A stretch of DNA of 64,000 bases from Myxococcales bacterium SG8_38 (GCA_001303415.1 LJTN01000004.1:6067-70066); one strand, 5' to 3'. Shown: positions 1-38,318, counted from the first letter of the stretch. Numbers and translations are program-made. Notes: generated from the sequence alone by a model not told the origin.

Positions 1-1760
1 GGGTATCAGTTCTTGCACTGGCCCATCCATTGAGTGGTGGCACCAGCACTGGTTTCGTTCGGCTGGCGACGGGCATGAGCATTGCCTTGGCCGCGCTCGA
101 CATACTGCTCCTCTATCGCCTCGCGCGCATGGTGTGGCCGCGTCGACTCCTACCGGTCCTGTTCGCGTTGGGCCTCTGCGTTTTCGACAACAGCTACACG
201 GTCTGGGCGATGCAGGCCCTCGAGTCACATTTGCTGATCTTCACCATCCTCGCGTCGTGTTTGTTCCTGTGGGGGCCACCCAATCGCTGCAATGTGACGG
301 GAGCCGTGCTCAGCCTGGCGGCCACGATGATGACGAGGCCAGACGCCGCGCTCTTCGTGGCGGTCATGGGTGTTAGCGAAATGCTACAGGCATGGCGCTC
401 CTCCGAGCCGAACCGAGCGCTCGGCCGTGTCGTGGCGATCTTTGGCGCGGCCGCGCTGATCTTCGGCTTCTACTTTCTTTGGCGATACCAGTACTTTGGT
501 TATCTGCTCCCCAATACCTTCTACGTCAAAGCCTCCGGGCTGCGTGGCGAGGCGGTGGCGCGGGGGTGGCGATATCTTCACGGCTTCCTGTCCGATCGCG
601 CGTATGTGCCGCTTCTTGCGCTGGGCGCGGTCCTGGGTGTCCGGGATCGGATCATCAGGCCTCTTTTCACGTGGGCTTTCCTCTACTCGGCCTACGTCGT
701 CTACGTAGGAGGTGACTTCTACCCGGGTCATCGGTTCTTCGTCGTGCTGACACCATTTGCTGCCTTGCTGTGCGCGTACACGCTCGACCTGCTGGCGGCA
801 TGGGTTCGAGCGCGTTGCAGCGAGCGTCCTCGTGTGGCCTCGGGCGTCTGGGTGCTTGGAACGGCTCTCGTCGTCACGATCGGCATTCGCGGGTTGATGG
901 TAGGTCCGCTACAAACCGAAGTGATTCGCTGGGGCGGCGAGGTCGAGCGAGTTCGCGCCTTCATGCAATGGCTGGGGGAACACTCGCCCCCTGACGCTTC
1001 CATCGTGACCGGCGACATCGGCTCGAGCGGCTACTACGCGAACCTTCACGTCTATGACTTTTTTGGGATCATCGACCCGGTGACGGCGCACCAAAGGCCG
1101 ACACGACTAGGCCGGGGCAAAGCAGGTCACGAAAAGCACGCAGACCCAGACTACCTTCTCGCGAAGAAGCCGACCTATATCAAATGGGGCTACATGGATC
1201 ATGGTCTCTACGAACGCGGGTACTACTTCGACGCAGATCTGCCGCCGAGCCTCGACGTGGCTGGAATCTGGCGCAGGGATGAGCTTGTCGAGAAACGAAA
1301 TCTAGAGCTCTTGAGCAGCCTTCCCTTTCAAAAGGCGCCGTATCCGGGTTGGACCGAAGCCGGCGAGGCGTTCGAGAGCTGGCCAGTCCGATCGGCGCCG
1401 CCCCATCAAGGGCGACCGGTGGGCCAGGTGGGTTGGTTCGTATCGAGTTATCATCGGATCAAAGGCGATGCAGTCGTTGGAGAGCTTCGATCCGCGCCCA
1501 TGCTGCTCGAGGGCGACGTGCTGACCCTCCGCGTCGCAGGCGGCCGCATCCCAGAGGCGCTCAAGGTCGAGCTGCTGGTCGATGGGGAGGTCGTCGCCTC
1601 CGCCACGGGGCACGACAACGACATCTTTGCCCGCAAAGTTTGGGAAATCTCGGACTATCGGGGTCGGACCGGCACGCTTCGAATCGTCGACGAGGCGGTG
1701 GGTGGCTGGGGACACATCATGGTCGACGAGATCCAGCAGTGGGTAGAAGGAGCGCGCTAG
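1..1760 (+). CDS. polytopic membrane protein (GT-C/ArnT-like N-terminal region) with C-terminal soluble jelly-roll-like domain; possibly 5'-truncated at window edge
   Basis: The frame is open from base 3 to the stop at 1758-1760, and the first in-frame start is TTG at 30. The first ~300 aa are multi-TM hydrophobic. The C-terminal ~140 aa (GWFVSSYH...GHIMVDEIQQW) look like a lectin/GH32-C type beta-sandwich. Family call is by recalled similarity only. Confidence 0.5.
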   Translation, partial: VSVLALAHPLSGGTSTGFVRLATGMSIALAALDILLLYRLARMVWPRRLLPVLFALGLCVFDNSYTVWAMQALESHLLIFTILASCLFLWGPPNRCNVTGAVLSLAATMMTRPDAALFVAVMGVSEMLQAWRSSEPNRALGRVVAIFGAAALIFGFYFLWRYQYFGYLLPNTFYVKASGLRGEAVARGWRYLHGFLSDRAYVPLLALGAVLGVRDRIIRPLFTWAFLYSAYVVYVGGDFYPGHRFFVVLTPFAALLCAYTLDLLAAWVRARCSERPRVASGVWVLGTALVVTIGIRGLMVGPLQTEVIRWGGEVERVRAFMQWLGEHSPPDASIVTGDIGSSGYYANLHVYDFFGIIDPVTAHQRPTRLGRGKAGHEKHADPDYLLAKKPTYIKWGYMDHGLYERGYYFDADLPPSLDVAGIWRRDELVEKRNLELLSSLPFQKAPYPGWTEAGEAFESWPVRSAPPHQGRPVGQVGWFVSSYHRIKGDAVVGELRSAPMLLEGDVLTLRVAGGRIPEALKVELLVDGEVVASATGHDNDIFARKVWEISDYRGRTGTLRIVDEAVGGWGHIMVDEIQQWVEGAR

Positions 1761-9229: not shown

Positions 9230-10780
9230 TCAGAAACGCTCGGATCGGCGGCCGTCCTTGTGGACCACGGCGTAGAGATCCTTCCGGCGGTCAGGCCAGG
9301 TTCGGACGGTGCCGGTGCCTTCGGTGCGCCGAAGAAGCGCGAGATCGAGGTCATGAACGATCATGGTTTCCACGTTGACCGTGCCCTGAGACGCGATGCC
9401 ATCGCGGGCAAAGTGAATGTCCGACGGCGTGAGGATCGCGGCTTGTCCGTAGTGGATGTCGGCGCCCTCGACTTGCGGCAAGTTCCCGACTGCGCCCGCC
9501 ATCACCACGTACATGTGGTTCTCGATCGCGCGCGCCTGCGCGCAGGCTCTCACCCGTACGTGACCAGAGCGAATGTCCGTGTTGTAGGGAATGAACAACA
9601 CGTCCGCTCCTTTGGCCTTGATGATTCGCACCCACTCCGGAAACTCGACGTCGTAGCAGATCGCGATGGCGATCTTGCCTCGGTCGGTTTCGAACACGTG
9701 GATGTCGCGTCCGGCCGTAATCCCCCACCACCGAGCCTCGGAAGGTGTGATGTGCGTCTTGTACTGCTTGTCGATTCGACCGTCACGGTGGAACAGAAAG
9801 GCGATGTTGTGGAGCCGGTTCTTTTCGACGGCGAAATGCGTACCGGCAATGATGTTCACGTTGTATTGGATTGCCATGTCGGTGAAGAACGAGATGTACT
9901 GATCGGTGAATTTGTCGAGCGCGCGTGCCGATTGTGCCGGGCTAGGCCCCGCGACGAGGTTGAGCAGCTGCGTGGTGAGCAGCTCCGGAAACAGCAAAAA
10001 GTCCACGCTGTAGTCGGCCGCGGAGTCGATGAAAAACTCGCACTGAGTCGCAAACTCCTCGAAGCTCGTCACGGGACGCATTTGGTACTGAACTGCCGCG
10101 ACGCGCATGGACCCCGCTGTTCTGCGCCTCGGGTCGGGGGGAACGAACGCAGGGTTGCGCCACTCCATCAAAACGGCGTGTCCGCTGGATGCCTTGTCGC
10201 TCGGAAGGTAGTTCTCGATCACTTCCCGTGCGATGAAGCCATTGGCGATCTGCGCGAGAATGACTGGATCGCGGATCTCCTTGTGCAGCACCTTGGCGAG
10301 ATACTCCTGGGGAGACATCTCGCTTGCATATCGGCTGTATCGGGGCATTCGTCCTCCGAACACGATGCCCCGCAAGTTGAGTCGCTGAGCGAGCTCTTTT
10401 CGCTCGTCGTAGATGCGGCGCGCGAAGCGCTGCCCTCGGAAGTCTGGGTCCACCGCGATGTCGATTCCATAGAGCGTGTCACCATCCGGATCGTGGCTGC
10501 GGATCATGCCGCCCTCGCATATGTCGTGGTAGGTGTGGCTCGCCGGTAAATCTTCGAGGTTGATGATGAGCGAGCTCGACGTGGCCACGACGCGTCCGTC
10601 CACCTCGACGCAAATCTGTCCCTCCGGAAAGAAATCGAGCTGGCTCGAAAACTGCTCCTTGGTCCAAGACTCGAGCTGCGGATAAGCACCTCGGTGCACG
10701 CGCTGCACGTCGCGGTAATCAGACTTCCTGAGCTGTCGTACGACGACCCGCCGCTTTCCTGGTGGTTGACTGTTGGCCAT
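9230..10780 (-). CDS. bifunctional GNAT N-acetyltransferase / carbon-nitrogen hydrolase (nitrilase superfamily) fusion protein
   Basis: N-terminal GNAT core (IAVDPDFRGQRFARRIY). The C-terminal CN-hydrolase has Glu (LLFPELL), Lys and Cys (IAIAICYDVEFPEW) contexts. Confidence 0.8.
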   Translation of the reverse strand: MANSQPPGKRRVVVRQLRKSDYRDVQRVHRGAYPQLESWTKEQFSSQLDFFPEGQICVEVDGRVVATSSSLIINLEDLPASHTYHDICEGGMIRSHDPDGDTLYGIDIAVDPDFRGQRFARRIYDERKELAQRLNLRGIVFGGRMPRYSRYASEMSPQEYLAKVLHKEIRDPVILAQIANGFIAREVIENYLPSDKASSGHAVLMEWRNPAFVPPDPRRRTAGSMRVAAVQYQMRPVTSFEEFATQCEFFIDSAADYSVDFLLFPELLTTQLLNLVAGPSPAQSARALDKFTDQYISFFTDMAIQYNVNIIAGTHFAVEKNRLHNIAFLFHRDGRIDKQYKTHITPSEARWWGITAGRDIHVFETDRGKIAIAICYDVEFPEWVRIIKAKGADVLFIPYNTDIRSGHVRVRACAQARAIENHMYVVMAGAVGNLPQVEGADIHYGQAAILTPSDIHFARDGIASQGTVNVETMIVHDLDLALLRRTEGTGTVRTWPDRRKDLYAVVHKDGRRSERF

Positions 10781-24319: not shown

Positions 24320-25831
24320 ATGGATGTCACCGCTTCCCGGGCAGCGTTGCATCGCCAGCACGCGAACTTGGTCCCACCCGGCTCCTTCGAGCCTCGCAAC
24401 CACTTCTACTCTCGGGTGCTAAATGCTCAGATCCACCCGTTGGTGTCTTTCTTTCTGCGGATGTCCAACCGCCGGATCGTCAACCGATACTGTCACTTGA
24501 ATCCCCGCGTGGATCCGCAGGCCCTAGAAGACGTGCTCAGCTACTCGCCCAAGCATTTTCAGTGGGCCGGCGCCGATCTCTTCTGCACCACCACCGCCGC
24601 GGGGAATCGAAGGCTGGTCGTCATCGAGACGAATTCCTGCCCCTCGGGTAACAAGTCGATGCCCATCCCGTCGGACGACGACGAGCAGGCCGGCTATCGC
24701 AAGCTGATCGAAACGGCCTTTCTCCCCTTGATTTCGAAGCGAAAAGGGACTTCCGGCGACCTCGCGGTGCTGTTCGACAAAAACCACATGGAAGCCTCGG
24801 GCTACGCCGCGGTCATCGCCGACCTCACGGGAGAGGACGTCTTTCTCACGCCGTTTCCGGACGCAACCGAGGATCCTCCGGCGAGATTCACCGACGGCCT
24901 GCTCGAAGTCAGAGACGCACAGGGGCGGTGGCGGCCCATCCGCGCTGCGTTTCGCTACGTGACGCAGAAGCCCTGGAACCGAATTCCGATTCGAACACGC
25001 ACCCGCATCTTGAATCCGGTGCTGACCTGCCTTTCGGGCGGGCGCAACAAGCTCGTCGCGATGAAGGCATACGAGCTCTACAACGCCGAGCTCGAGGGCT
25101 CGGGGCTCCACATCCGGACTCCGCAAACGATCGGGGACGTGGCCAAGGAAGAGGTGCCGCTCTGGGTTCGCCGCTTCGGCGGCCACGCCGTCGTGAAGGT
25201 TCCCTACAGCAATGCAGGTCAGGGCGTGTTCACGATCGTGAACGAGCGCGAGCTACATCGGTTCATGGAGATCGACCACCCCTACGACCGCTTCGTGGTG
25301 CAAAGTCTGATCGGGAACTACGTATGGAGCTCGGTGGAGCGCGTAGGACGCTTCTATCACGTCGGCACGATTCCAGATCGGCACGGGCACATCTACGTCG
25401 CCGACCTCAGGGTGATGGTCTGTGGCGGGGCAACGGGCTTTCGACCTCTCGCGGTGTATGCGCGACGCTCCAGAAAGCCCCTGCCTGCCGTCCTGGAAGA
25501 GGGGGAATCGTCCTGGGAAGTCTTGGGAACCAATCTTTCGGAGCGACAGCCGGATGGCAGCTGGACCGCGTCGACTGACCGGTTGCTGTTGATGGATCGG
25601 CGTGACTTCAACACCATCGGGATCGGAACCGACGATCTCATCGAGGCCTACATCCAGTCGGTGCTGGCAGCCATCGCCATCGACAAGATGACCGCGATGC
25701 TCCTCACGCAAAAGGGCGGACTGCGCCGGGGGCTATTCCGATCCCTCGATGACGATGACGCGCTGTTCGACGAGATCCGCGAGGGCGCCAAAGGCGCAAA
25801 GACCATCGTGCCGGACCCTCCAAAGGATTGA
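24320..25831 (+). CDS. ATP-grasp-like amidoligase, apparently circularly permuted; function unknown
   Basis: A canonical E-x-N..PSG Mg/ATP motif ([12 protein letters not shown]) lies near the N-terminus. It sits upstream of the Lys/Gly-loop ([16 protein letters not shown]), the hinge (FVVQSLI) and the D-x-R strand (ADLRVMV). The start is uncertain (ATG 24320 chosen; the ORF is open from 24107). Confidence 0.55.
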
Positions 25832-25839
25832 CGCGGCGA

Positions 25840-26817
25840 TCAGGCTCGCTGCTCAAACGCCTCGATGACGGCGCCGCTAAAATCCCGACCGTAGAGACGC
25901 TCGCTAGGATGAAGCCCACCTGGACTGAACACGTTCAGCTCGAGTATCCGGCCGCCCACGAAATCCACACCCACGTGAAAGAGCCCCTCCCGTCGTAGGT
26001 GGGGTGCGATTTGCGCAACCGCCTCTTGCATGGCGTCGGTGACGCCGGACGGCTGGGCAGCTCCTCCCACGTGGAGATTGCTTCGAAAGTCTCCACCCCT
26101 CGGCACTCGGGCGATGACCGCCGGCTGGCCGTCGACCTCGAGGATCCGGCCGTTCACGACGGTCACGCGAACGTCTCCACGGTCGGCGCCGGGGACGAAC
26201 TCCTGCACCATCGCATAGCCGCGCCGCAGCACGACCTCGATGATCTGCTTCGTGTTGGCCTGCGGGCCGGCCGGCTCGAGGACGAAAACATCGCGACCTC
26301 GGGTCCCATCGAGGGGCTTGATGACGATCCGGTTCGACGCCTCGTCGAGAAATCGTTCGATGACCGCGACGTCGCGCGTGATCAGGGTGCGTGGCCTCAA
26401 GGAGGCAGGAGCCTCCAGAAGAGAGAGCTTCGTCTGCGCCCGGCAAAGACCTCGCGGGTGGTTGATGACGCGGACACCCTGCTCGTCCAGTCGCTCGAGT
26501 AGACGAAGGGCCGCCACGTGCTCGGCCCGGCGCGCCTCGTCCCTACCTGGGTTCGTCCGGATGATGCACAAGTCCTGCTCGCCGAGCGCCCGACTCGACG
26601 CTCGGCCTCTGAGGAGCTCCTCGACTACGGCTGCCGGCTCGGTCGCTTCGACACGGCAACCGAGCCCTCGAAGGGTTCCATCGTCGTTCACCGTGAAATC
26701 GCCAACGCCGCAGACCAGAACCTCGTGCCCTCGCCTCGCAGCGGCGCTGATCAAGAGCGTGGTGGTCTGCTCGACGGAGGGCTCCCGCCGATCGTTCACG
26801 ACGAAGCAGAACCGCAT
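25840..26817 (-). CDS. glutathione synthetase-like (GshB/RimK-type) ATP-grasp ligase
   Basis: IVIKPLDGTRGRDVF, GDVRVTVVNG, ARVPRGGDFRSNLHVGG and ILELNVFSPGG parallel E. coli GshB motifs. The ATG at 26817 overlaps the upstream stop (TGATG). Confidence 0.75.
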   Translation of the reverse strand: MRFCFVVNDRREPSVEQTTTLLISAAARRGHEVLVCGVGDFTVNDDGTLRGLGCRVEATEPAAVVEELLRGRASSRALGEQDLCIIRTNPGRDEARRAEHVAALRLLERLDEQGVRVINHPRGLCRAQTKLSLLEAPASLRPRTLITRDVAVIERFLDEASNRIVIKPLDGTRGRDVFVLEPAGPQANTKQIIEVVLRRGYAMVQEFVPGADRGDVRVTVVNGRILEVDGQPAVIARVPRGGDFRSNLHVGGAAQPSGVTDAMQEAVAQIAPHLRREGLFHVGVDFVGGRILELNVFSPGGLHPSERLYGRDFSGAVIEAFEQRA

Positions 26818-27863
26818 CAATGGCTCCCTTGCAAGACCGGCGGGGTCGCGGGGCGCCGTTGAAAGCCGTGGTCTGGCGAGGCGATCACGCCCAAGTGCAG
26901 GATTCGCGCACCGGTTTGGCCCACCGGATTGACGCTCTTGCCCACCACGATGCCGTCTTGTGGCGCGTGGTACTCGCGGATCACGTCCCCGAAGGCATTC
27001 CGAAGCACCGCGACGCGCTCACCGCGACTCACCAGCTCGGTGGGACGTGGAAGCACCTCCAAGAGCCCACCGCGATCGGTGTACATCCAGAACGAGCGCT
27101 CGCACAAGATGGGCTCGTTGCCTTCGGCCACGGGACGCTTTGGGAGCATGCCCGCCGCCGCGAGCACGGTCCGAAGGCCAATCCGCGACGATTTCACGAA
27201 GCTCGGCTGGAAACGCTGAGGGTCTCCCACCTCCAAGGTGATGGACGGAATCCCAAGATCCATCGCGGCGCCCCGCAGCGTGTAGTCCGACGGTGGATTG
27301 TGGACGATGATTTGCGGCCGTTGCAGGTAGGCCATGGTCGCCGTCGCGGGCTGCGTCATGTCGGCACGCACGTAAAGTGAGTTGACGCGGCCGAAGCTCG
27401 CCGTGTGCAAGTCGACCAAATAGTCGAAGCGTTTGACGATTCGGTCGAGGACTCGGTGTGCATACACCTCGGCGACGTCCCCATCCTCGCGCCCCGGGAA
27501 GATGTGATTCAGGTCACCGCCGTCGACGAACTCGCGTTGATGCCGATGAAGACCCGGCACGTTGACCACGACCACGGCCACGAGCGCACCCTGGAGCTGT
27601 CGCGGGTCGATGTGGTGCATCAGGTCGTGAATAACCCGGATTCCGTTGAGCTCGTTGCCGTGAACGGCAGCGGTCAGCCCGAAGACCGGACCATCGCGCT
27701 TGCCGCGCGCCACCAAGACCGGCAGCAGAATGTCTTGGGCCAGGCCATTGGCGACGAGATCGATGTAGAGGCGTGAAACCTCCCCCCGCGGAAAGTCCTC
27801 GATGACGAGCTCGCGATTCCGGAAGACCGGGCTTGTCGCGCCGTTGCGAAGGTCGCCTTTCAT
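26817..27863 (-). CDS. succinylglutamate desuccinylase/aspartoacylase (AstE/AspA, M14-like) family deacylase
   Basis: Zn-ligand contexts AAVHGNELNG and LVDLHTAS. ATG 27863 chosen as the start. Confidence 0.75.
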   Translation of the reverse strand: MKGDLRNGATSPVFRNRELVIEDFPRGEVSRLYIDLVANGLAQDILLPVLVARGKRDGPVFGLTAAVHGNELNGIRVIHDLMHHIDPRQLQGALVAVVVVNVPGLHRHQREFVDGGDLNHIFPGREDGDVAEVYAHRVLDRIVKRFDYLVDLHTASFGRVNSLYVRADMTQPATATMAYLQRPQIIVHNPPSDYTLRGAAMDLGIPSITLEVGDPQRFQPSFVKSSRIGLRTVLAAAGMLPKRPVAEGNEPILCERSFWMYTDRGGLLEVLPRPTELVSRGERVAVLRNAFGDVIREYHAPQDGIVVGKSVNPVGQTGARILHLGVIASPDHGFQRRPATPPVLQGSH

Positions 27864-27938
27864 CTGGGTCCGCGCAACTCTGACACCGCCCCGCAGCCCG
27901 CGCACGTGCCCTGGTCTCGGGCGCCGAAACGGCGCCAG

Positions 27939-27977
27939 TGCAAGCCTTGCACATGCAGTGAGGGCAAGTTTTGCACT
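27939..27977. promoter_or_regulatory. cluster of (T/G)GCA-N5-(T/G)GCA repeats incl. 15-bp palindrome GTGCAAGCCTTGCAC; candidate enhancer (UAS)
   Basis: Read directly: GTGCAAGCCTTGCAC at 27939-27953, TGCAgtgagGGCA at 27955-27967, and GGCAagtttTGCAC at 27964-27977. The core is the same as the sites at 32176-32228. Confidence 0.35.
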
Positions 27978-28026
27978 CGGCGGCCCCCCGAGCCTTGCTT
28001 TCTACGTTCTTGACTTCGATTCAATT

Positions 28027-28042
28027 TGGCACCGATTATGCA
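28027..28042 (+). promoter_or_regulatory. sigma-54-like -24/-12 element TGGCACcgattaTGCA
   Basis: GG-N10-GC spacing is correct. However, it overlaps ATG 28038 and also sits inside a sigma-70-like TTGACT-N17-GATTAT (28011-28039). Confidence 0.3.
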
Positions 28043-28682
28043 CGCGGGCGGCACCGTGATTCATCCATCCACAGAAGTGCGATACATCGATGAGGTCGTC
28101 GGTTTGGGAGTCTTCGCTACCGGCAGACTGGCCAAGGGAACCATCACCTACGTCTGGGATCCGCTCGAGATCGAGATCGCTCCCGAGGATCCGAGGCTCC
28201 AAGACCCCACTTTTGCGCCCATAATCGAGCGCTATTCCTACATCGACCCGAACGGCGTCCGCATCGTGAGCTGGGACCATGCCAAGTTCGTCAATCATTG
28301 CTGCCAAGCCAACACCATGAGCACCGGGTACGGCTTCGAGATCGCGATACGGGACATCGAAGCCGGAGAACAGATCACCGACGAGTACGGAATGTTCAAC
28401 CTCCCCGACGCCATGGAGCTTTGCTGCTCGAAAGGGCCCTGTCGCAAGAAGGTCGAGGCCGGTGACCTCGATCGCTACTACGCGCGATGGGACGCGCAGA
28501 TCAAGTCCGCGTTGAAGCTGGTTGAGCAGGTGGAGCAGCCCCTGTGGCCGCTGGTCGACGTGGGGACCGCGACGGCCGTCGAGCAGTTCGTGCGGTGGGG
28601 CAAAGGCTATCGCTCGGTCCGGGACCTGGAAGCGTTCAGCGGCGCTTGCGCCCAGGGGAACGGCGCCGCCTTATCGCAATGA
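28038..28682 (+). CDS. SET-domain protein (putative protein-lysine methyltransferase)
   Basis: GLGVFATGRLAKGTI, FVNHCCQANT and GEQITDEYG are SET signatures. The start is uncertain: both promoter readings predict a TSS downstream of ATG 28038, so GTG 28056 or GTG 28077 are alternatives. Confidence 0.75.
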   Translation: MHAGGTVIHPSTEVRYIDEVVGLGVFATGRLAKGTITYVWDPLEIEIAPEDPRLQDPTFAPIIERYSYIDPNGVRIVSWDHAKFVNHCCQANTMSTGYGFEIAIRDIEAGEQITDEYGMFNLPDAMELCCSKGPCRKKVEAGDLDRYYARWDAQIKSALKLVEQVEQPLWPLVDVGTATAVEQFVRWGKGYRSVRDLEAFSGACAQGNGAALSQ

Positions 28683-29463
28683 ACGTGAGGTCGTCGGGCT
28701 TGGAGGGCTCGCCGTCGGACGAGGCGGCCATTCGCTGCCGGCCCAAGGCAGCCAGCTCGGCGACGGCTCGGGGAAGCGGACCCTTCCGGACACGCTCGAC
28801 GATCTCGTCCAGGTGGAGATTGTCGCTCAGCCCATCGCTCGCCAGAACGACCGTGTCGCGAGGCGACAGCTCGAGAGCTGCACCAAGCTCGATACGCATT
28901 CCATGACCCCCGAGCAGATTGGATACGATGTGCAGGTCCTCGTGGTGCAATGCATCGCCCCGATCCAGTAGGCCGGCCTCGACCGCATACCCCACGGGCG
29001 AGTGTGGAATGGTGAGCCACTTGATCCGTCCGCGCTGACCCGTGACGAGCACCATGGAGTCCCCCGCGTGGTAGGCCCGCATGTGACTGCCCTGGATTTC
29101 GACCACCGCAAGCGTGGCGGCAGCGCCGGTGCCGAGCGCCGAGATGGCTCGATCGGCGGATTCGAAGCCGTTGATGATCGCCTCCCGAAGGTTTCCGAGA
29201 TCGCCTCCAAGCTTCGCCACCGAGTCGCAGACGGCCCGAACGGCGAGCGCTGCAGCCTCTGCGCCTCCCGGATGACCGCCGGCACCGTCGGAGACCACGG
29301 CGACAGCCGCCTCGTCGGCCAGCGATATCAGCGCTGCCGCATCCTCGTTTGGACCCTCGCGCCCCGGCTTGGGAATGCTGAGCACGACGGCTTCTCCAGC
29401 CCCGAGCTCGAACCGCTCGCCTTGGGTCATGTCCACATCCGTAAAGATGTGGGTCTCGCTCAC
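28636..29463 (-). CDS. PP2C-family Ser/Thr protein phosphatase
   Basis: NEDAA, VSDGAGGH and LASDGLSDN motifs. The GTG at 29463 sits behind GGGAGG and overlaps the kinase stop (GTGA). Confidence 0.8.
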   Translation of the reverse strand: MSETHIFTDVDMTQGERFELGAGEAVVLSIPKPGREGPNEDAAALISLADEAAVAVVSDGAGGHPGGAEAAALAVRAVCDSVAKLGGDLGNLREAIINGFESADRAISALGTGAAATLAVVEIQGSHMRAYHAGDSMVLVTGQRGRIKWLTIPHSPVGYAVEAGLLDRGDALHHEDLHIVSNLLGGHGMRIELGAALELSPRDTVVLASDGLSDNLHLDEIVERVRKGPLPRAVAELAALGRQRMAASSDGEPSKPDDLTFIAIRRRRSPGRKRR

Positions 29464-30320
29464 GGCGCCGACCTCCCGCCACGCGTCGAGCCCCGAAGGG
29501 CTCGCGGTTTGACGGCTTGGAAGGCCCGCTCCATCTGCACGCCGTCGCGATACCGCTTGCGCTCGCGTATCTCGATCGCCCGGCGGATGAAGCTGATGAA
29601 GTCCCGGCTGACCGTGCGGCGAAGGCGCTCCGCGCCCGGTAGCGGCCAGTCGAACGGCCACTCCGGAAGCTCCCCCGCGAACATGCGGTAAATCAACAAC
29701 CCCATCGAGAAGACGTCGGACCGAAAGGAGGGCTTCCCCATCGCCTGCTCAGGGGCCATGTAACCGACGGTTCCCTGTCCGGAGCCCATGATGGTTCGCG
29801 TTCGCAGCGCGACCTTCGCGATGCCGAAGTCGGCGAGCCGCACTACCCCGCCTGGAAACAAGATCACGTTGTCCGGCTTGATGTCACAGTGAATGATCCG
29901 CTCTTCGTGGGCGTACGCCAGTGCGGATAGCAACTGCTCCGTGTACGATAGCGCCGTTTTGGGCCCGAGCCGCCGGTGCAACCGGTCTGCGAGGGTTTGC
30001 CGTCCGAGCGGGGTCGCAATGACGAAGTATCCATCGATCATCATCGCGTTGCGTAGCGGCAGAATGTTTTCGTGCTCGAGGCGCGCGGTCAGACGAACCT
30101 CGCGCCGAATGAGGTTCAGCGACTCTTGGTCGAGCTGATCGAGGTCAGGAATCTTGAGTGCGACCGGCACGCCCTCGATCGTGTCGTAAGCCTCGTAGAC
30201 GGTGGCGAATGCCCCGACGCCGATTCGGCGGCGGACACGGTACTTGCCCAGCATCTGCCGCGCCTTGAGGGGCGGAGAGGCGGGTTTGCTTCCGGTCTTT
30301 CGAAGCCCGTCCCAGCGCAT
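29460..30320 (-). CDS. Hanks-type Ser/Thr protein kinase, catalytic domain only
   Basis: GVGAFATV, VALK, HCDIKPDN, DFG and APE motifs. ATG 30320 chosen (the ORF is open to 30512). No TM or sensor domain. Confidence 0.85.
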   Translation of the reverse strand: MRWDGLRKTGSKPASPPLKARQMLGKYRVRRRIGVGAFATVYEAYDTIEGVPVALKIPDLDQLDQESLNLIRREVRLTARLEHENILPLRNAMMIDGYFVIATPLGRQTLADRLHRRLGPKTALSYTEQLLSALAYAHEERIIHCDIKPDNVILFPGGVVRLADFGIAKVALRTRTIMGSGQGTVGYMAPEQAMGKPSFRSDVFSMGLLIYRMFAGELPEWPFDWPLPGAERLRRTVSRDFISFIRRAIEIRERKRYRDGVQMERAFQAVKPRALRGSTRGGRSAP

Positions 30321-30419
30321 GATGACCGGGCGCAAATCTGACACCTGCTCGGATTCTGCGCACGACCTTTGTGGCCGGCCGCCATGGACGGCCCCGAGAA
30401 CGCGAGCCATCCTTGCGCC

Positions 30420-31814
30420 ATGATGGCGCAGCAGACCGGCCGGGTCCTGGTCGTCGAAGGCGATGCGGAGGTTCAGTCCGAGCTCGAGGCTCAACTCACG
30501 GCGATCGGGCATATGGTGGACACGGCGCCCGACGGGGCCGAGGCGCTGGAGCTCGTGGAACGGTCGATGCCCGATGTGATCCTCGTGGAGCTCGAGCTCG
30601 AGGGCATGGATGGGTTCGAGTTCTTGCGGCAGGCCAGAGCCCTACTCCCTTCGGCTTCCTTCATCGCAATCGCAAGCTCCGGCTCGACCGACACGGCGGT
30701 CAAGGCGCTGGCCTCTGGGGCCGACCGGTGCCTGACCAGGCCGATTCGACCAGATGCGCTGGCCCTCGTCGTCGAGCGGTCGCTCGACAAGCCCATCCAC
30801 GCGAGGGATGCGATCAACGCCCGGGCGGAGGCTGCGGCGTCGTTTCCGACCACGCGACTCGATCACATCGTCGGGGCGCATCCCTCGATGCAGCGGCTAT
30901 TCAAACGAATGCTTCAGGCCGCCAAGAGCAGGTCGACGGTCCTGATCCAGGGAGAAACCGGGACAGGCAAAGAGCTGATTGCCAAGGCCGTGCACGAGCA
31001 CTCACTGCGCAGCGAGGGACCCCTGATCCGGCTGAACTGCGCAGCGCTCTCCGAAAGTGTCCTCGAATCCGAGCTCTTCGGGCACGAGAAGGGGGCGTTC
31101 ACGGGAGCCGTGACCCGGCGCAGCGGCCGATTCGAGCAGGCCGACGGTGGCACGCTGTTCCTCGACGAGCTGAGCGAAATGCCGCTTTCGGTGCAGGTCA
31201 AGCTGCTCCGCTTCCTTCAGGAGCGGGAGTTCGAGCGGGTTGGCGGCAACGAGACAGTCAAGGTCAACGTGCGGGTCGTCGCAGCGACGAACCGAGACTT
31301 GAGGACGCTGGTAGACGACGGGAGGTTCCGCGAAGATTTGTATTTCCGTCTGAAGGTCGTCGTCCTGGACGTGCCACCGCTTCGCGCGCGGCCGAGCGAC
31401 ATCCCCCTTCTGGCAGACTATTTCCTTCGCTTCTATTCGGAGGAGAACGGCAAGCATGTACGTGGCTTCACGGCGCGCGCTCGCGAGGCGCTGCTCGGCT
31501 ACCCGTGGCCCGGAAACGTCCGCGAGCTCCAACACGCCATCGAGCAGGCGGTGGTCCTCTGTGAAAAGGAGCTGATCGGTTCCGAAGACCTACCCATCCA
31601 GGCGCCTGATCCGGAGGTCGAGCCATTGAGCTTGCTCGTCCCGGGCGTGACCTTGGCCGAGGTAGAGCGGTATACGATCCTCAGAACCCTGGAGGCGGTG
31701 GGAGGGTCGCCAACGAAGGCGGCCGCGATTCTGGGAATCAGCAAGCGAACCATCCAATACCGGCTTCAGGAGTGGGGGGTGACCAAGCGAAACGCATGGC
31801 CCAACGAAAAGTGA
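30420..31814 (+). CDS. sigma-54-dependent transcriptional activator (NtrC family) with degenerate receiver domain
   Basis: REC-like N-terminus, then an AAA+ core with [14 protein letters not shown] and DGGTLFLDE, then a Fis-type [23 protein letters not shown]. The phospho-acceptor position is Glu57 (codon 30588-30590). Confidence 0.9.
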
Positions 31815-31826
31815 ATCGGGTGTGCG

Positions 31827-32069
31827 CTAGCGGCGGCGGCGCGTTGGCAAGACGTCATCGGGGCTCAATACGTCGAGAACTCCGTCGACGAGCAGAACGT
31901 GCTCTCGAAGGGCCCGACCGAGCTCGGCCGCGATAGGCGCAGCCTCGTCGAAACGCCCGGTCTCGATGCTTGCCTGCATGCTCTCAGTTCTCTCCAGCAG
32001 AAGGCGATTCTCGGTACGGATCTTCTGCACGACCTCAGGGGTGACCAAATCGAGCTGGGGACGCGTCAT
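31827..32069 (-). CDS. small helical hypothetical protein (80 aa)
   Basis: ATG 32069 lies 4 nt after GGAGAA (forward ttctcc, 32074-32079) and about 22 nt downstream of the predicted sigma-54 TSS. No family recognised. The longer 250-aa ORF version is rejected. Confidence 0.5.
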   Translation of the reverse strand: MTRPQLDLVTPEVVQKIRTENRLLLERTESMQASIETGRFDEAAPIAAELGRALREHVLLVDGVLDVLSPDDVLPTRRRR

Positions 32070-32100
32070 GGGGTTCTCCGCTTTGTCGAGCCCTAATGAG

Positions 32101-32116
32101 AGCAAGCGCCGTGCCG
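32101..32116 (-). promoter_or_regulatory. sigma-54 -24/-12 promoter CGGCACGgcgcTTGCT (minus strand)
   Basis: The reverse complement of 32101-32116 matches TGGCACG-N4-TTGCW except at the first base, with GG-N10-GC spacing. The SD and ATG of the 80-aa ORF follow. Confidence 0.6.
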
Positions 32117-32175
32117 TGCCAACTGAGCAATAACCGCCTGGAAAAGCTACCGAGAAAACTCGCCCGCGAGGGCTC

Positions 32176-32228
32176 GGTGCAAGTCCTGCATCCATCCCGC
32201 GGTACCCCGGTGCAGGTTCTGCACCGGG
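32176..32228. promoter_or_regulatory. two tandem GTGCA-N5-TGCA sites, candidate enhancer for the flanking divergent sigma-54 promoters
   Basis: Site 1 is GGTGCAAGTCCTGCATC (32176-32192). Site 2 is a perfect palindrome with 10-bp arms, CCCGGTGCAG-gtt-CTGCACCGGG (32206-32228). The centres are about 33 bp apart. Confidence 0.55.
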
Positions 32229-32298
32229 ACGCGGCTGGCATCCCGCCCGATCGCGAAATCGTCGTTGGCGGCGTGCCTTCAATCCGGCAGCCGACAGA

Positions 32299-32314
32299 TG
32301 GCACAGAACGTGCT
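32299..32314 (+). promoter_or_regulatory. sigma-54 -24/-12 promoter TGGCACagaacgTGCT
   Basis: GG-N10-GC spacing is exact. It lies 47 nt upstream of ATG 32361, and GAGGAA is at 32351-32356. Confidence 0.6.
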
Positions 32315-32360
32315 CAGACCTCTCGGTAGGGACTTTCCCAACAACAAAGCGAGGAACGTC

Positions 32361-32630
32361 ATGCCAATACGAGGTGACAGAACGAAGCGAGACCGTGATC
32401 GCCGCCACAGCGAGCTGGACTGGTTCGCGGAAGACCCGTGGTCCGACCCGGATCTCGCCTCGTTGGAGGACAGTCAAGACGACTGGGATCCCGAGTTGTG
32501 GGGAACGAGCGACGAGGCTTTGGACGACTGGGACGAAAGCGAAGAGGACGAAGAGTCGGACGAGGACGAGGACGAGCACGACGGATGGGGACCGGTTCGC
32601 CGACGCGGCAAACGAAAAAGCGACGATTGA
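32361..32630 (+). CDS. small hyper-acidic Trp-rich protein (89 aa), no family recognised
   Basis: ATG lies 4 nt after GAGGAA. The N-terminus is basic (RGDRTKRDRDRRH), the core is acidic with 6 Trp each flanked by D/E, and the C-terminus is basic (RRRGKRK). Confidence 0.6.
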   Translation: MPIRGDRTKRDRDRRHSELDWFAEDPWSDPDLASLEDSQDDWDPELWGTSDEALDDWDESEEDEESDEDEDEHDGWGPVRRRGKRKSDD

Positions 32631-34741: not shown

Positions 34742-34800
34742 GGCCCGAGAGGGTACACTGAAGAAGCACTTTGACTTTCGCAATTTCGAAGACAACGCTC

Positions 34801-35268
34801 GTGGGCGTGAGCGAACTATCGGTCATCGGTTGGCGTGAGTGGGTGGCGTTGCCCGACCTCGGCATCTCGCGCATCAAAGCGAAGGTCGACACGGGCGCAC
34901 GTAGCTCGTCCCTTCACGCATACGACATCGAAGTGTTCTCGAGAGGCCCACGCGACTACGTTCGCTTCGTCGTTCACCCCGTGCAACGGGAGACGAAGAC
35001 GACGATCCACTGTATCGCGGAGCTCCACGAGCATCGCCACGTGAAAAGCTCGAGCGGGCACCGGGAGTACCGCCCGATCATCCGAACCTCACTCGAGCTG
35101 GGTGCCGAGCGATGGCCGATCGACCTGACCCTAACTACTCGCGATGCCATGGGATTCAGGATGCTCCTCGGGCGCGAGGCGATTCGAGGGCGGTTCGTGG
35201 TGGAGCCGGGACGCTCATACTTGTGCCGTGGCCTCGTTCCCAAACGCAGGAAGAGGCGCGAAGCATGA
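34801..35268 (+). CDS. RimB-like retropepsin-type / 'ATP-dependent zinc protease' (DUF785) protein
   Basis: [29 protein letters not shown] signature. The stop overlaps the rimK ATG (ATGA). The start is uncertain (GTG 34801 chosen; TTG 34771 is possible). Confidence 0.65.
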
Positions 35269-36167
35269 AGATCGGAATCCTTTCCAGGAATGCGCGGCTC
35301 TACTCGACCAAGAGGCTGAAAGAAGCCGCCGCGGAGCGAGGTCACACGGTGCGGGTCGTCGACTTCACGCGGTGCTACATGAACATCACATCGCATCGCC
35401 CTCAGGTGCTTCTGGCCGGAACGGCGCTGCAGTTTGATGCGATCATCCCGCGCATCGGTGCGTCCCATACATTCTACGGAACGGCGGTCGTGCGGCAGTT
35501 CGAGATGATGGGGACGTACTCTCTGAATACTTCGCAAGCGATTTCTCGCGCTCGCGACAAGCTGCGTGCGCTCCAGTTGCTGGCTCGGGAGGGGATTGGC
35601 TTGCCGGTGACCGGCTTCGCCCGCTCCACGAAGGACATTCAGGGCTTGATCAAGCTCGTCGGCGGCGCTCCGCTGATCATCAAGCTTCTGGAAGGAACGC
35701 AAGGCATCGGCGTGGTGCTCACAGAAACCGACAAGGCGGCGGAGTCGGTCATGGCGGCCTTCAGCCAGCTCGATGCCAACATTCTGGTTCAAGAGTTCAT
35801 CAAGGAAGCCGAGGGTGCCGACATTCGCGCCTTCGTCATCGGTGACAAAGTCGTGGCCTCTATGATGCGGCAGGGGCCGCGCGGAGAGTTCCGGTCGAAC
35901 CTGCATCGCGGAGGCAAGGCGACGCGGGTGAGACTCACGCCAGAAGAACGCAGCACCGCAGTGCGTTCCGCGAAGAAGCTCGGCCTGCGGGTCGCTGGCG
36001 TCGACATGCTGCGCTCCAATCATGGGCCGGTGGTCATGGAGGTGAACTCCTCGCCTGGGCTCGAGGGAATCGAAACCACCAGCGGCAAAGACGTCGCCGG
36101 AGCCATCATCGAGTACTTGGAGAAGAATGCGAAGCGGGGAAAGACCAAAGACCGGATCCAAGGCTGA
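35265..36167 (+). CDS. rimK: RimK-family alpha-L-glutamate ligase (ATP-grasp)
   Basis: MKIGILS..., [30 protein letters not shown] and [12 protein letters not shown] motifs. Confidence 0.85.
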
Positions 36168-37122
36168 GCCACGCGCTCCCTTCGAGATCAACGGCGTCGC
36201 GGCCCCTCCCGGTAAGCTGACCCAGGTCGAGCTGCGAGTGGCGCGATTGCCCACCGGAATGTGGCTTTCACTTCCCGTCGGTGTGTTGCACGGCCGCAAA
36301 GACGGCCCCGTGATTTGGGTCAGCGGAGCCGTTCATGGGGACGAGCTGATGGGCATACCCATCATCCGCCGCGTGCTGGCTCGGATCGATCCCCAGGATC
36401 TCTCCGGCACGGTCTTGGCCGTACCCGTGATCAACGTATTTGGCTTGATTCAAGAGTCGCGGTACCTGCCCGATCGTCGGGATCTCAATCGGAGCTTTCC
36501 CGGCTCGAAACGCGGCTCCACTGCATCGCAGTTGGCGCATCTATTCATGAAGGAAGTGGTGGCGCGCTCCGACGTGGGTCTCGACGTGCACACCGGATCG
36601 GACGGGCGGGTCAACTTGCCGCAAGTTCGGTGCGATTTGACCGAGCCGAGCACGCTTCGCTTGGCGCGCGAGTTTGGCGCTCCTGTGTTGTTGCACTCGC
36701 GTCTGCGTGATGGCTCCCTGCGTGCGGCGGCGGCGGAAAAGGGCAAAACCGTCCTCCTCTACGAAGGAGGCGAAGCGAATCGATTCGACGCGCGCGCGAT
36801 CGCGCTCGGGGTGGGCGGGGTGCTTCGCGTCATGAAGGCCCTCGGCATGATCGACTACGGCGTGGAATCGCCCGAGGAGCCGCCGCACGTGTACCGGGCG
36901 AGCTCCTGGATCCGCGCGCGGTGCACCGGATTTTGCGAAATGATGGTGAGCCTAGGTACCACCGTGGCTGAAGGGGAAACTGTCGCCGTCATTTTCGACG
37001 CATTAGGGCGCGATCGAACCCTGGTCAGGGCCAACAGCCCTGGAATCGTCATCGGGCACGCCACTTCGGCCCTCGTGCACCGCGGCGATGCCATCGCGCA
37101 CATCGCGGCTTCCACGGACTAG
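36127..37122 (+). CDS. succinylglutamate desuccinylase/aspartoacylase family deacylase (paralog of 26817-27863)
   Basis: [10 protein letters not shown] and GLDVHTGS Zn-site contexts. The start overlaps the rimK 3' end by 41 nt (uncertain). Confidence 0.75.
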
Positions 37123-37199: not shown

Positions 37200-38318
37200 A
37201 TGAAAAAGGCTCGCCGCAAGAACCGTCGCTCCCGGCACTATCTGGATCTCGGAAACCGTTACCGGGTGGGGTCCCCGCCAGGCGTTTTGGAGCCTCATCC
37301 GGAGGCCGCTCCGACGGTCATTCGCAGAATGGTCTACGACGCGGAGGGCTTCAGTGAAGAGCGTTTCGAAAAGTCCATCCCCAAGAACAAGCTCAGCCGC
37401 GAAGCGAACCGGGTCCTTTGGCTCGATGTAGTCGGCCTCGGAAGCGCCGAAGCGCTCAAGCACATCGTCACGACGTTCAATCTCCACGCGCTCGCCGTCG
37501 AGGATGTCCTTCACCAGCGCCAGCGTCCCAAGGCCGAGGTATACGGAGACACGCTGTTCATCGTCGTCAGAATCCCGCACCTTAACGAAGGCTCCACGAC
37601 ATTCGAGCAGGTGAGCATGTTCCTCGGCCGGGATTTCGTCCTTACGTTCCAAGAAGAAGAGGGGGATTGCTTCGACTCGGTGCGGGAGCGCGTCCGCCGC
37701 AGGCAGGGTCGCGTTCGGCACGGAGGCGCCGACTACCTCGCATATGCGATTCTCGACTCCGCCATCGACCAGTACCTTCCGTTGGCCGATTCGATGGGCG
37801 ACCGCATCGACGAAATGGAGCGGGAGATTCTGTCGAAATCCGATTCGTCCGTGGTACAGCGCTTGCTTGATCTTCGCGGCGATCTCAATCATTTGCGGCG
37901 GAACCTGACGCCGGCCCGTGATGCGGTTGCTGCGATGGCGTCCATCGCGGGCACGTTGGTCTCCGATGAGACCAAGATCTACCTCCGAGATTGTCAGGAC
38001 CACATCGTACAGCTCAACGAGGTGACCGAGAGCTACGGCGACACGGTTTCGGCGCTGGTCTCCATACATCTGAGCTTGGCTAGCCAACGTTTGAACGAAG
38101 TGATGAAGGTGCTCACGGTCTTTGCGGCGCTCTTCATGCCTTTGAGCTTCATCGCAGGCGTGTACGGCATGAACTTCGACCCGGACGCGTCGCCCTACAA
38201 CATGCCCGAGCTCGGTTGGGCATACGGTTATCCGCTCGTACTCGTGGTCATGGCCGTTCTTGCAGGGAGCTTGGTCTTGTACTTCCGGCGTCGGGGTTGG
38301 CTCGGGGGCCCACCCTAG
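37200..38318 (+). CDS. corA: CorA-family magnesium/cobalt transporter
   Basis: YGMNF signature between two C-terminal TM helices. Confidence 0.85.
   Translation: MKKARRKNRRSRHYLDLGNRYRVGSPPGVLEPHPEAAPTVIRRMVYDAEGFSEERFEKSIPKNKLSREANRVLWLDVVGLGSAEALKHIVTTFNLHALAVEDVLHQRQRPKAEVYGDTLFIVVRIPHLNEGSTTFEQVSMFLGRDFVLTFQEEEGDCFDSVRERVRRRQGRVRHGGADYLAYAILDSAIDQYLPLADSMGDRIDEMEREILSKSDSSVVQRLLDLRGDLNHLRRNLTPARDAVAAMASIAGTLVSDETKIYLRDCQDHIVQLNEVTESYGDTVSALVSIHLSLASQRLNEVMKVLTVFAALFMPLSFIAGVYGMNFDPDASPYNMPELGWAYGYPLVLVVMAVLAGSLVLYFRRRGWLGGPP

Follow-up and report, generated by a model that had tools for sequence, protein, structure and literature searches.

A probable lineage-specific sigma-54 regulon centred on an activator with an aspartate-less receiver in uncultured Polyangiales (Myxococcota)

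The 64,000-nucleotide stretch of Myxococcales bacterium SG8_38 DNA analysed here (GCA_001303415.1, LJTN01000004.1:6067-70066; hereafter the window, with a G+C content of ~62%) carries, between positions 27,939 and 32,630, six genes that an earlier note, made from the sequence alone, had proposed to form a self-contained sigma-54 signalling module, with a Ser/Thr kinase and a PP2C phosphatase as its input. Pfam and motif scans found the four annotated domains and every sequence element that the note had listed, and its coordinates hold apart from the start of the small gene that we call E, which is 32069 and not 32070. The genes are as follows:

28056-28682, plus strand: SET-domain methyltransferase gene, its open reading frame (ORF) opening at 28026 (Pfam SET PF00856, 38.1 bits against a cut-off of 22.4)
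28636-29463, minus strand: PP2C phosphatase gene (Pfam PP2C_2, 56.8 bits)
29460-30320, minus strand: Hanks-type Ser/Thr kinase gene, 286 residues, a kinase domain alone (Pfam Pkinase, 136.7 bits)
30420-31814, plus strand: sigma-54 activator gene of the NtrC/AtoC class, 464 residues, with an aspartate-less receiver (Pfam REC, Sigma54_activat, AAA_lid and HTH_8)
31827-32069, minus strand: gene E, 80 residues, a predicted two-helix hairpin with 93 homologues, convergent with the activator gene
32361-32630, plus strand: gene F, 89 residues, acidic (alignment of 16 orthologues)

Relatives of this region were gathered through E, which yielded 29 loci (cited below by L numbers), 18 of them in species-level Polyangiales metagenome-assembled genomes (MAGs) and the rest on metagenome contigs, together making up 21 unique arrangements; frequencies among the 18 genomes come from tblastn with the window proteins. 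This synteny search split the proposed six-gene unit: the activator and E are always linked, whereas F was detected in 11 of the 18 genomes, the kinase-PP2C pair beside the activator in seven and SET in three. Activators with 75-96% identity were found by tblastn in every E-bearing locus, and wherever a locus had enough sequence the activator gene followed E directly in convergent orientation. Gene maps of these loci show both flanks reshuffled around a constant block made up of the F-side promoter, the enhancer, E and the activator, and the predicted heritable core comprises the activator gene, E and the bidirectional enhancer between E and F.

The elements of the E/F intergenic region, with scores from a position weight matrix (PWM) trained on the relatives and applied at a threshold of 13 bits, are:

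32101-32116, minus strand: predicted sigma-54 promoter of E, CGGCACGGCGCTTGCT (GGCA[CT]-N5-TTGC[TA] in 21/21 loci)
32177-32191, unstranded: E-proximal enhancer palindrome, GTGCAAGTCCTGCAT (22.0 bits; conserved in relatives)
32210-32224, unstranded: F-proximal enhancer palindrome, GTGCAGGTTCTGCAC (25.5 bits; 33 bp centre-to-centre from the E-proximal site)
32299-32314, plus strand: predicted sigma-54 promoter of F, TGGCACAGAACGTGCT (conserved in 21/21 loci)

A search of the window for TGGCAC-N5-TTGCW with at most one mismatch gave four matches against 1.48 expected, and three of these are the promoters claimed in the note (28027 on the plus strand, 32101 on the minus strand and 32299 on the plus strand), all intergenic and in the right orientation; the fourth, at 37852, falls within the CorA coding sequence and was set aside as a chance match. 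Likewise, TGCA-N5-TGCA occurs four times against 0.78 expected, a number that none of 100 shuffles reached, and three occurrences are the claimed palindromes (27939, 32178 and 32211); the fourth, at 10695, scores below the PWM threshold. The PWM itself matches at only four places in the whole window, 27936, 27960, 32175 and 32208. The footprint across the relatives gives a palindrome consensus of CAGTGCAGAAnCTGCACTG, a site of the GTGCAG-N3-CTGCAC type, and in 20 of the 21 arrangements two such sites are separated by 32-34 bp centre-to-centre, equal to three helical turns (L017 has a single palindrome above threshold). Both divergent promoters are kept in all 21 unique loci, with the consensus TGGCAC(G/A)rAAC(G/C)TGCT on the F side and GGCAC-N5-TTGCT on the E side, and the sequence around them diverges. 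Measured from the predicted transcription start of E, the palindromes of the window are centred at about -93 and -126; measured from that of F, at about -108 and -141. The divergent, correctly spaced -24/-12 promoters around GTGCA-N5-TGCA palindromes that the note had described are thus above chance expectation and conserved, and this region has the predicted layout of a textbook bidirectional enhancer, of the kind that serves an enhancer-binding protein.

The note had also placed the same type of palindrome upstream of the SET gene, and the motif and PWM scans found sites there, at 27939 and 27960. The third promoter region contains:

27938-27952, unstranded: enhancer palindrome GTGCAAGCCTTGCAC, site 1 upstream of SET (an exact TGCA-N5-TGCA; 14.8 bits)
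27962-27976, unstranded: degenerate enhancer site GGGCAAGTTTTGCAC, site 2, 24 bp from site 1 (15.3 bits)
28027-28042, plus strand: predicted sigma-54 promoter of SET, TGGCACCGATTATGCA (GGCA[CT]-N5-NTGCA in L006, L013 and L014)

The promoter and both palindromes are kept in all four SET carriers, the window, L006, L013 and L014. Site 1 is retained in L013 and L014, differs by one base in L006 and has a homologous counterpart in L009, while site 2 (AGTGCAAAACTTGCCC on the opposite strand) is present in L006, L013, L014, L019 and L009. In L009 a near-identical promoter, GGCACCGATTGTGCA, and a homologous palindrome pair precede an RRM-domain gene in place of SET, and L019, which lacks SET, still has the palindromes beside a decayed promoter. 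Further promoters of this kind were found elsewhere: L022, L023 and L027 have an additional palindrome and -24/-12 promoter, divergent from the activator gene, with an OmpA-like lipoprotein gene and an operon for MscS-like (PF05552), MgtE_N-CBS and MgtE proteins downstream, and a matching promoter with the same OmpA-like, MscS-like and MgtE genes downstream occurs in L025 and also in L028, where it lies beyond the AstE1 cluster (one of two deacylase gene clusters described below). The SET domain of the window protein covers the full profile (1-105), and its NHCCQAN and GEQITDEY segments, read directly from the translation as were the catalytic motifs of the kinase and PP2C, correspond to NHxCxPN- and ELxxDY-type motifs. 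We took GTG 28056 as the likely start of SET since it lies downstream of the promoter, and the start region (GTG-ATT-CAT-CC) is kept in relatives. With a predicted sigma-54 transcription start at about 28052, the SET message would be nearly leaderless. A weak sigma-70-like match (28010-28039, plus strand; TTGACT-18-GATTAT, 9 of 12 positions) overlaps the SET sigma-54 promoter, and its TTGACT hexamer, retained in L006, is not conserved in either L013 or L014.

No GAFTGA protein other than the activator occurs in the window. Its AAA+ core is intact (PF00158, 241 bits), with Walker A (GETGTGKE at 178), GAFTGA at 225, Walker B (LFLDE at 246), the arginine finger (REDLYFR at 304) and sensor II (GNVREL at 365), and it ends in a Fis-type helix-turn-helix (HTH) domain (HTH_8, 39 bits); both this core and the combination of an HTH with upstream sites near -24/-12 promoters of the GG-N10-GC form are as expected of an enhancer-binding protein. 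The N-terminus is a clear receiver domain (PF00072, 68 bits against a cut-off of 30.2) that lacks the canonical response-regulator residues: the position equivalent to NtrC D54 is Glu58, within VELELEG, the acidic pair has been replaced and the conserved Lys is Arg, which places it among the aspartate-less receivers. In a comparison of 21 activators (the window and 20 loci, aligned to NtrC and CheY reference sequences), the acceptor column holds Glu in 11, Ala in five, Gly in three and Asp in two (a count over 22 sequences gives 12, five, three and two), the acidic pair DD has become E-G/S, and Arg almost always takes the place of the Lys. The commonest replacements in this receiver class include Glu, Gly and Ala (PMC4395418). 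The earlier readings of an NtrC-type activator with an intact GAFTGA core and of a receiver that cannot be phosphorylated on Asp are borne out, the latter for the window protein and for 19 of the 21 activators compared. Nor is a cognate histidine kinase linked: no HisKA/HATPase gene lies among the window neighbours and none recurs in the locus maps (L001 alone has a hybrid kinase, unrelated and 2 kb away). With the acceptor Asp mostly lost and no linked histidine kinase, the family-wide input is not expected to be phosphorylation on Asp; the domain is a predicted pseudo-receiver and activity would not be set by Asp phosphorylation. An exact-sequence look-up of the window activator found no record.

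Gene E and gene F are real genes that, as the note had said of its two small ORFs, belong to no recognisable family in Pfam, NCBIfam or the PDB. The 93 database homologues of E (63-100% identity) are nearly all of ~80 residues, and those with names all come from Polyangiales or Myxococcales MAGs; an alignment of 27 homologues has 18 invariant columns. The AlphaFold2 model predicts a two-helix hairpin (helices 11-37 and 40-67; mean predicted local distance difference test score, pLDDT, 83.6), for which a Foldseek search gave only generic hairpins and nothing specific (best E-value 0.25). A profile search of the PDB returned solely a designed helical barrel (4.5e-4), and a profile search of 1.84 billion representative proteins returned 25 members, all small, with no informative fusion. 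Four remote homologues (28-45% identity) were found on short contigs; a -24/-12-like motif stands upstream in three, and in the fourth, L113, it abuts the called start, while GCA-N5-TGCAC palindromes are also present in two. As these remote homologues show the same pairing, the association of an E-type gene with this type of enhancer and promoter and with an acidic protein appears to be older than the clade.

Several observations on individual E loci may be added. On L113 a lipoprotein gene (3-233, minus strand) whose product ends in ADDEEDDEEDEDDEDD, a poly-Asp/Glu tail, is divergent from the remote E homologue, and the region between them has a GTGCA-type palindrome and a -24/-12 promoter, making this a second pairing of an E-like with an acidic protein. 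In L003 (7282-8001), L020, L021 and L024, translational coupling joins E to an ORF of ~239 residues in front of it that has no family match, and in L005, L013, L014, L017 and L019 a short ORF starting MS..K.TSL separates E from the sigma-54 promoter; neither ORF occurs upstream of E in the window. The stop codons of E and the activator gene are 12 bp apart in the window (31814-31827; 4-88 bp in relatives) with no terminator-like hairpin between the two genes, and since they are convergent, read-through from the E promoter would give RNA antisense to the 3' end of the activator message, a possible second route of feedback on the activator.

F has a basic N-terminus (MPMRxDRxKR), an ELDWFAEDPW motif, a variable, acidic and Trp-rich middle (39% Asp plus Glu) and a DGWGPVRRR C-terminus. 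A motif search added L029 and the metagenome locus L009 to the genomes with F, orthologues could be aligned from 16 loci, and the 14 database clusters of F are all within this clade, none of them annotated. What follows F differs between relatives. In L010, L017 and L026 it is succeeded on the same strand by MscS-like, MgtE_N, MgtE, (RimB), RimK and AstE2 genes; in L029 those MscS-like, MgtE and RimK genes come after the F-side promoter; in L013 and L014 F is followed, after a gap of ~85 bp, by RimB and then by RimK, AstE2 and CorA; and in L022, L025 and L028 F is missing and the F-side promoter faces rimK directly. In the window and L006 a trkH-trkA pair on the opposite strand has been inserted between F and rimB, so that F would be monocistronic in the window. 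The window RimK passes the NCBIfam cut-off for ribosomal protein S6-glutamate ligase, and frequent next neighbours are CorA, CDF transporter or MscS genes. Because Mg2+/cation transport and the RimK system recur as neighbours, a cation/ribosome or ionic-stress role can be suggested, and the regulon is probably linked to cation (Mg2+) and ribosome homeostasis. An Rfam search of the window and of eight loci gave no M-box and no match to any other family. Sites at E, F and SET support the outputs that the note had named, and the relatives widen the set with MgtE-type and RimK operons that the same type of enhancer drives or precedes on the same strand.

On either side of the proposed regulon the window has an ATP-grasp ligase gene paired with one for an AstE/AspA-family deacylase, and the two pairs are paralogous (24320-27863 and 34771-37122). 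One pair consists of a glutathione-synthetase-like ligase with AstE1, together with a conserved 503-residue protein without a family match; the other comprises RimB-like, RimK and AstE2 genes, then CorA. In many relatives both clusters are likewise found close to the activator. Mobile DNA has been inserted beside the conserved core in two relatives, as shown by relaxase (MOB), NikA-like and transposase genes immediately upstream of the F/E region (L008, 1388-6531; L009, 4891-6362).

The kinase and PP2C genes form one operon with intact motifs (VALK, HCDIKPDN, DFG and YMAPE in the kinase), and the coupling of a sensor-less kinase to PP2C that the note had described is seen in a GTGA overlap joining the kinase stop to the GTG start of PP2C, with the same 4-nt overlap in L006; the 47-bp convergent overlap of the SET and PP2C 3' ends is likewise as the note had it. 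The operon has what may be its own promoter, and the window holds a second copy of the same motif:

30337-30364, minus strand: promoter-like motif CGTGCG-N14-GTGTCAGA, not of the sigma-54 type, upstream of the kinase gene
27879-27906, minus strand: second copy of CGTGCG-N14-GTGTCAGA, upstream of the AstE-like gene of the AstE1/ATP-grasp operon

Both copies lie 17-20 nt upstream of the start codon, the motif precedes both genes in ~12 related loci, and GTGTCAGAKT occurs at only those two places in 64 kb against 0.17 expected. Neither reading of the sequence nor the PWM scan found a sigma-54 promoter facing AstE1. These matches suggest that the kinase-PP2C and AstE1/ATP-grasp operons may be co-regulated by a factor other than sigma-54.

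What the kinase and phosphatase do for the activator is the question on which the strongest rival explanation turns. It holds that they reversibly phosphorylate the activator, on its receiver or another part, on Ser/Thr, as the dedicated input of the regulon. The two transcription units are divergent neighbours, the spacer between them is 99-103 bp (99 in the window) and alignable in 10 loci, and loci with the kinase beside the activator occur in five separate lineages of the activator tree; the alignable junction and this scatter argue that adjacency is ancestral and has been retained repeatedly. Moreover, the pair stays beside the activator in L016 and L026 although the AstE cluster is absent there, and in favour too are the loss of Asp chemistry from the receiver and the lack of a linked histidine kinase. 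RitR and StkP offer a precedent for Ser/Thr phosphorylation of an atypical receiver. GlnR is another, as mentioned in PMC12632262. Against this, adjacency is absent in 11 of the 18 genomes. PP2C is always found behind the kinase in orthologous loci, yet among 21 orthologous pairs from a metagenome scan (kinase identity 75-85%) the activator lies upstream in only two, and ~16 of the 21 sit between DctP and short-chain fatty acid transporter genes with no activator nearby; of the wider-family kinases (50-61% identity), 0/59 adjoin an activator. The activator has no Pfam match to an FHA domain, its receiver residues are alike in loci with and without an adjacent kinase (the residue at the acceptor position does not follow kinase adjacency), and the 99-bp spacer contains neither an enhancer palindrome nor a -24/-12 element, the kinase operon having instead the distinct motif that it has in common with the AstE1 operon. 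We consider this explanation unlikely, though the best of those that compete with ours, and a self-contained six-gene module with Ser/Thr phosphorylation as its input is not what the relatives show. The pair is an apparent ancestral neighbour with its own non-sigma-54 promoter motif, and probably no integral part of the module. Distant kinase homologues in L060, L079, L093 and L107 have C-terminal repeats of CPWCG-type zinc-ribbon motifs before the PP2C gene, an extension that the orthologue group of the window has lost.

Somewhat more doubtful is a hybrid circuit that would take in most of the locus, in which the kinase and PP2C set the activator through Ser/Thr of its receiver, E is a modulator of a new type, and the outputs (acidic, cation-buffering F, Mg2+ transporters, S6 glutamylation and a methyltransferase) form a new pathway of Mg2+ and ribosome homeostasis in Myxococcota.

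A constitutive activator, in which the Glu at the acceptor position mimics aspartyl phosphate and control is exerted only through the amount of activator or of sigma-54, seems to us improbable, and slightly more so than the hybrid circuit. Glu is present at this position in the window and in about half of the activators compared, as counted above, and the D54E substitution activates NtrC (Klose 1993, as cited in PMC4395418). However, the survey of aspartate-less receivers gives Asp-to-Glu alone as often insufficient (PMC4395418), and the eight activators with Ala or Gly retain the same enhancer, promoters and E, so that Glu is evidently not required. The strict retention of a full-length receiver, at the overall identity given above, also argues for a regulatory role. 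Finally, that the palindromes are operators of another transcription factor, the -24/-12 matches fortuitous and the small ORFs sigma-70 genes, is very improbable, since beside the one weak sigma-70-like match at the SET promoter stand the GG/GC dinucleotides and spacing kept on both sides of the palindromes in 21/21 loci, a sole invariant neighbour that is a sigma-54 activator, and the return of the promoter and palindrome pairing at third loci and at remote E homologues.

We propose that the locus is probably a lineage-specific sigma-54 regulon of uncultured Polyangiales, and the phylogenetic footprint in all 21 unique loci is strong support for the activator-centred sigma-54 regulon that the note had put forward. 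The activator (REC-AAA+-HTH) would bind the paired GTGCA-N5-TGCAC palindromes through its Fis-type HTH, and from ~80 to 140 bp upstream would remodel sigma-54 holoenzyme at three local promoters, those of E and F being divergent and served by one common enhancer and that of SET having a palindrome pair of its own; DNA binding by this activator is something we infer. The outputs would vary by genome, from F alone to F with MscS-like, MgtE_N/CBS, MgtE, RimB, RimK and AstE, and elsewhere to rimK directly, an OmpA-like/MscS-like/MgtE operon, an RRM protein or SET. Activity would most likely be set through the receiver or the AAA+ domain, on which a protein partner or a ligand would act. Being invariably linked to the activator and, on this proposal, self-induced, E is the best candidate for such a modulator, giving feedback in the manner of PspA on PspF or FleN on FleQ without homology to either.

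Several points weigh against parts of this proposal. There is no RpoN box in the 64-kb window; for M. xanthus, sigma-54 is described as general and as essential (PMC12316311). E has no sequence or fold homology to known anti-activators (PspA-, FleN- or HrpV-like), and its proposed role is drawn solely from linkage and the logic of autoregulation. The Mg2+ theme follows from the identity of neighbouring genes, and the window itself has no MgtE operon beside the core, with trkHA parting F from rimBK. Lastly, the kinase-activator junction is homologous across five lineages, so a functional tie is possible.

The activator has the same REC-AAA+-HTH architecture and GAFTGA motif as NtrC1 and NtrC4 of Aquifex, AtoC and ZraR. 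Its best NCBIfam matches are AtoC and ZraR (451 and 403 bits), though it scores below every equivalog cut-off, and its full-length PDB matches are 4l4u, 1ny5 and 3dzd. Like other group I activators it would have palindromic upstream sites, here ~80 to 140 bp from the promoters. Unlike NtrC1, NtrC4, AtoC and ZraR, its receiver lacks the acceptor Asp, the second acidic residue and the Lys, and no cognate histidine kinase is linked. The NtrC site, TGCACC-N5-GGTGCA, has a half-site arrangement unlike the GTGCA-N5-TGCAC found here. The FHA-domain enhancer-binding proteins of M. xanthus (Jelsbak et al. 2005, cited in PMC12288465) come from the same phylum. Input from Ser/Thr kinases has reportedly been proposed for them, and FHA is the known route by which such kinases reach activators in M. 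xanthus, but the activator described here has a receiver fold and no FHA domain.

The nearest parallels for a feedback arrangement are two. PspF and PspA likewise combine an activator with an adjacent sigma-54-driven gene for a helical protein, and negative feedback of that kind is what E might exert; PspF, however, has no receiver, E has no PspA/ESCRT-III match (nothing in Pfam, and Foldseek as above), and the PspF and PspA genes are divergent whereas E is convergent with the activator. FleQ of Pseudomonas is also a sigma-54 activator with a receiver-like domain that is not phosphorylated, counted among the pseudo-receivers (PMC12632262), and its activator-controlled partner FleN feeds back on it as proposed here for E, but FleN is a MinD/ParA-type ATPase and E an 80-residue hairpin, and the regulon here has no flagellar or exopolysaccharide genes. 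RitR, ChxR and GlnR have receiver folds without Asp, as here, some of them modified on Ser/Thr (PMC4395418, PMC12632262), but with OmpR- or NarL-type outputs at sigma-70 promoters in place of an AAA+ sigma-54 remodeller.

The type of system is thus already known, both as an enhancer-binding protein with a local regulon and as an aspartate-less receiver. The site consensus, the E and F partners and the MgtE/RimK link of this activator are undescribed in the searchable literature: no system of this composition came up in a search for such an activator described in connection with a Ser/Thr kinase, RimK or Mg2+, in agreement with the note. The locus also holds a caution, as the kinase, PP2C and SET genes resemble a module in one genome and prove to be loosely attached among relatives.

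Sigma-54 activators are unusually numerous in Myxococcota (PMC12316311), and an enhancer, a regulon or a signal has been defined for very few. Here comparative genomics alone yields a full cis-regulatory layout, with a site consensus, palindromes at a fixed spacing of 33 bp, an enhancer that serves both directions and promoters of three classes. It also gives an uncultured lineage a minimal heritable core, made up of the activator, E and the enhancer. An activator with an aspartate-less receiver becomes directly testable in a heterologous host, the orphan families E and F gain a clear regulatory handle, and the outputs found among the relatives suggest an unexpected connection of sigma-54 to MgtE-type Mg2+ transport and to RimK.

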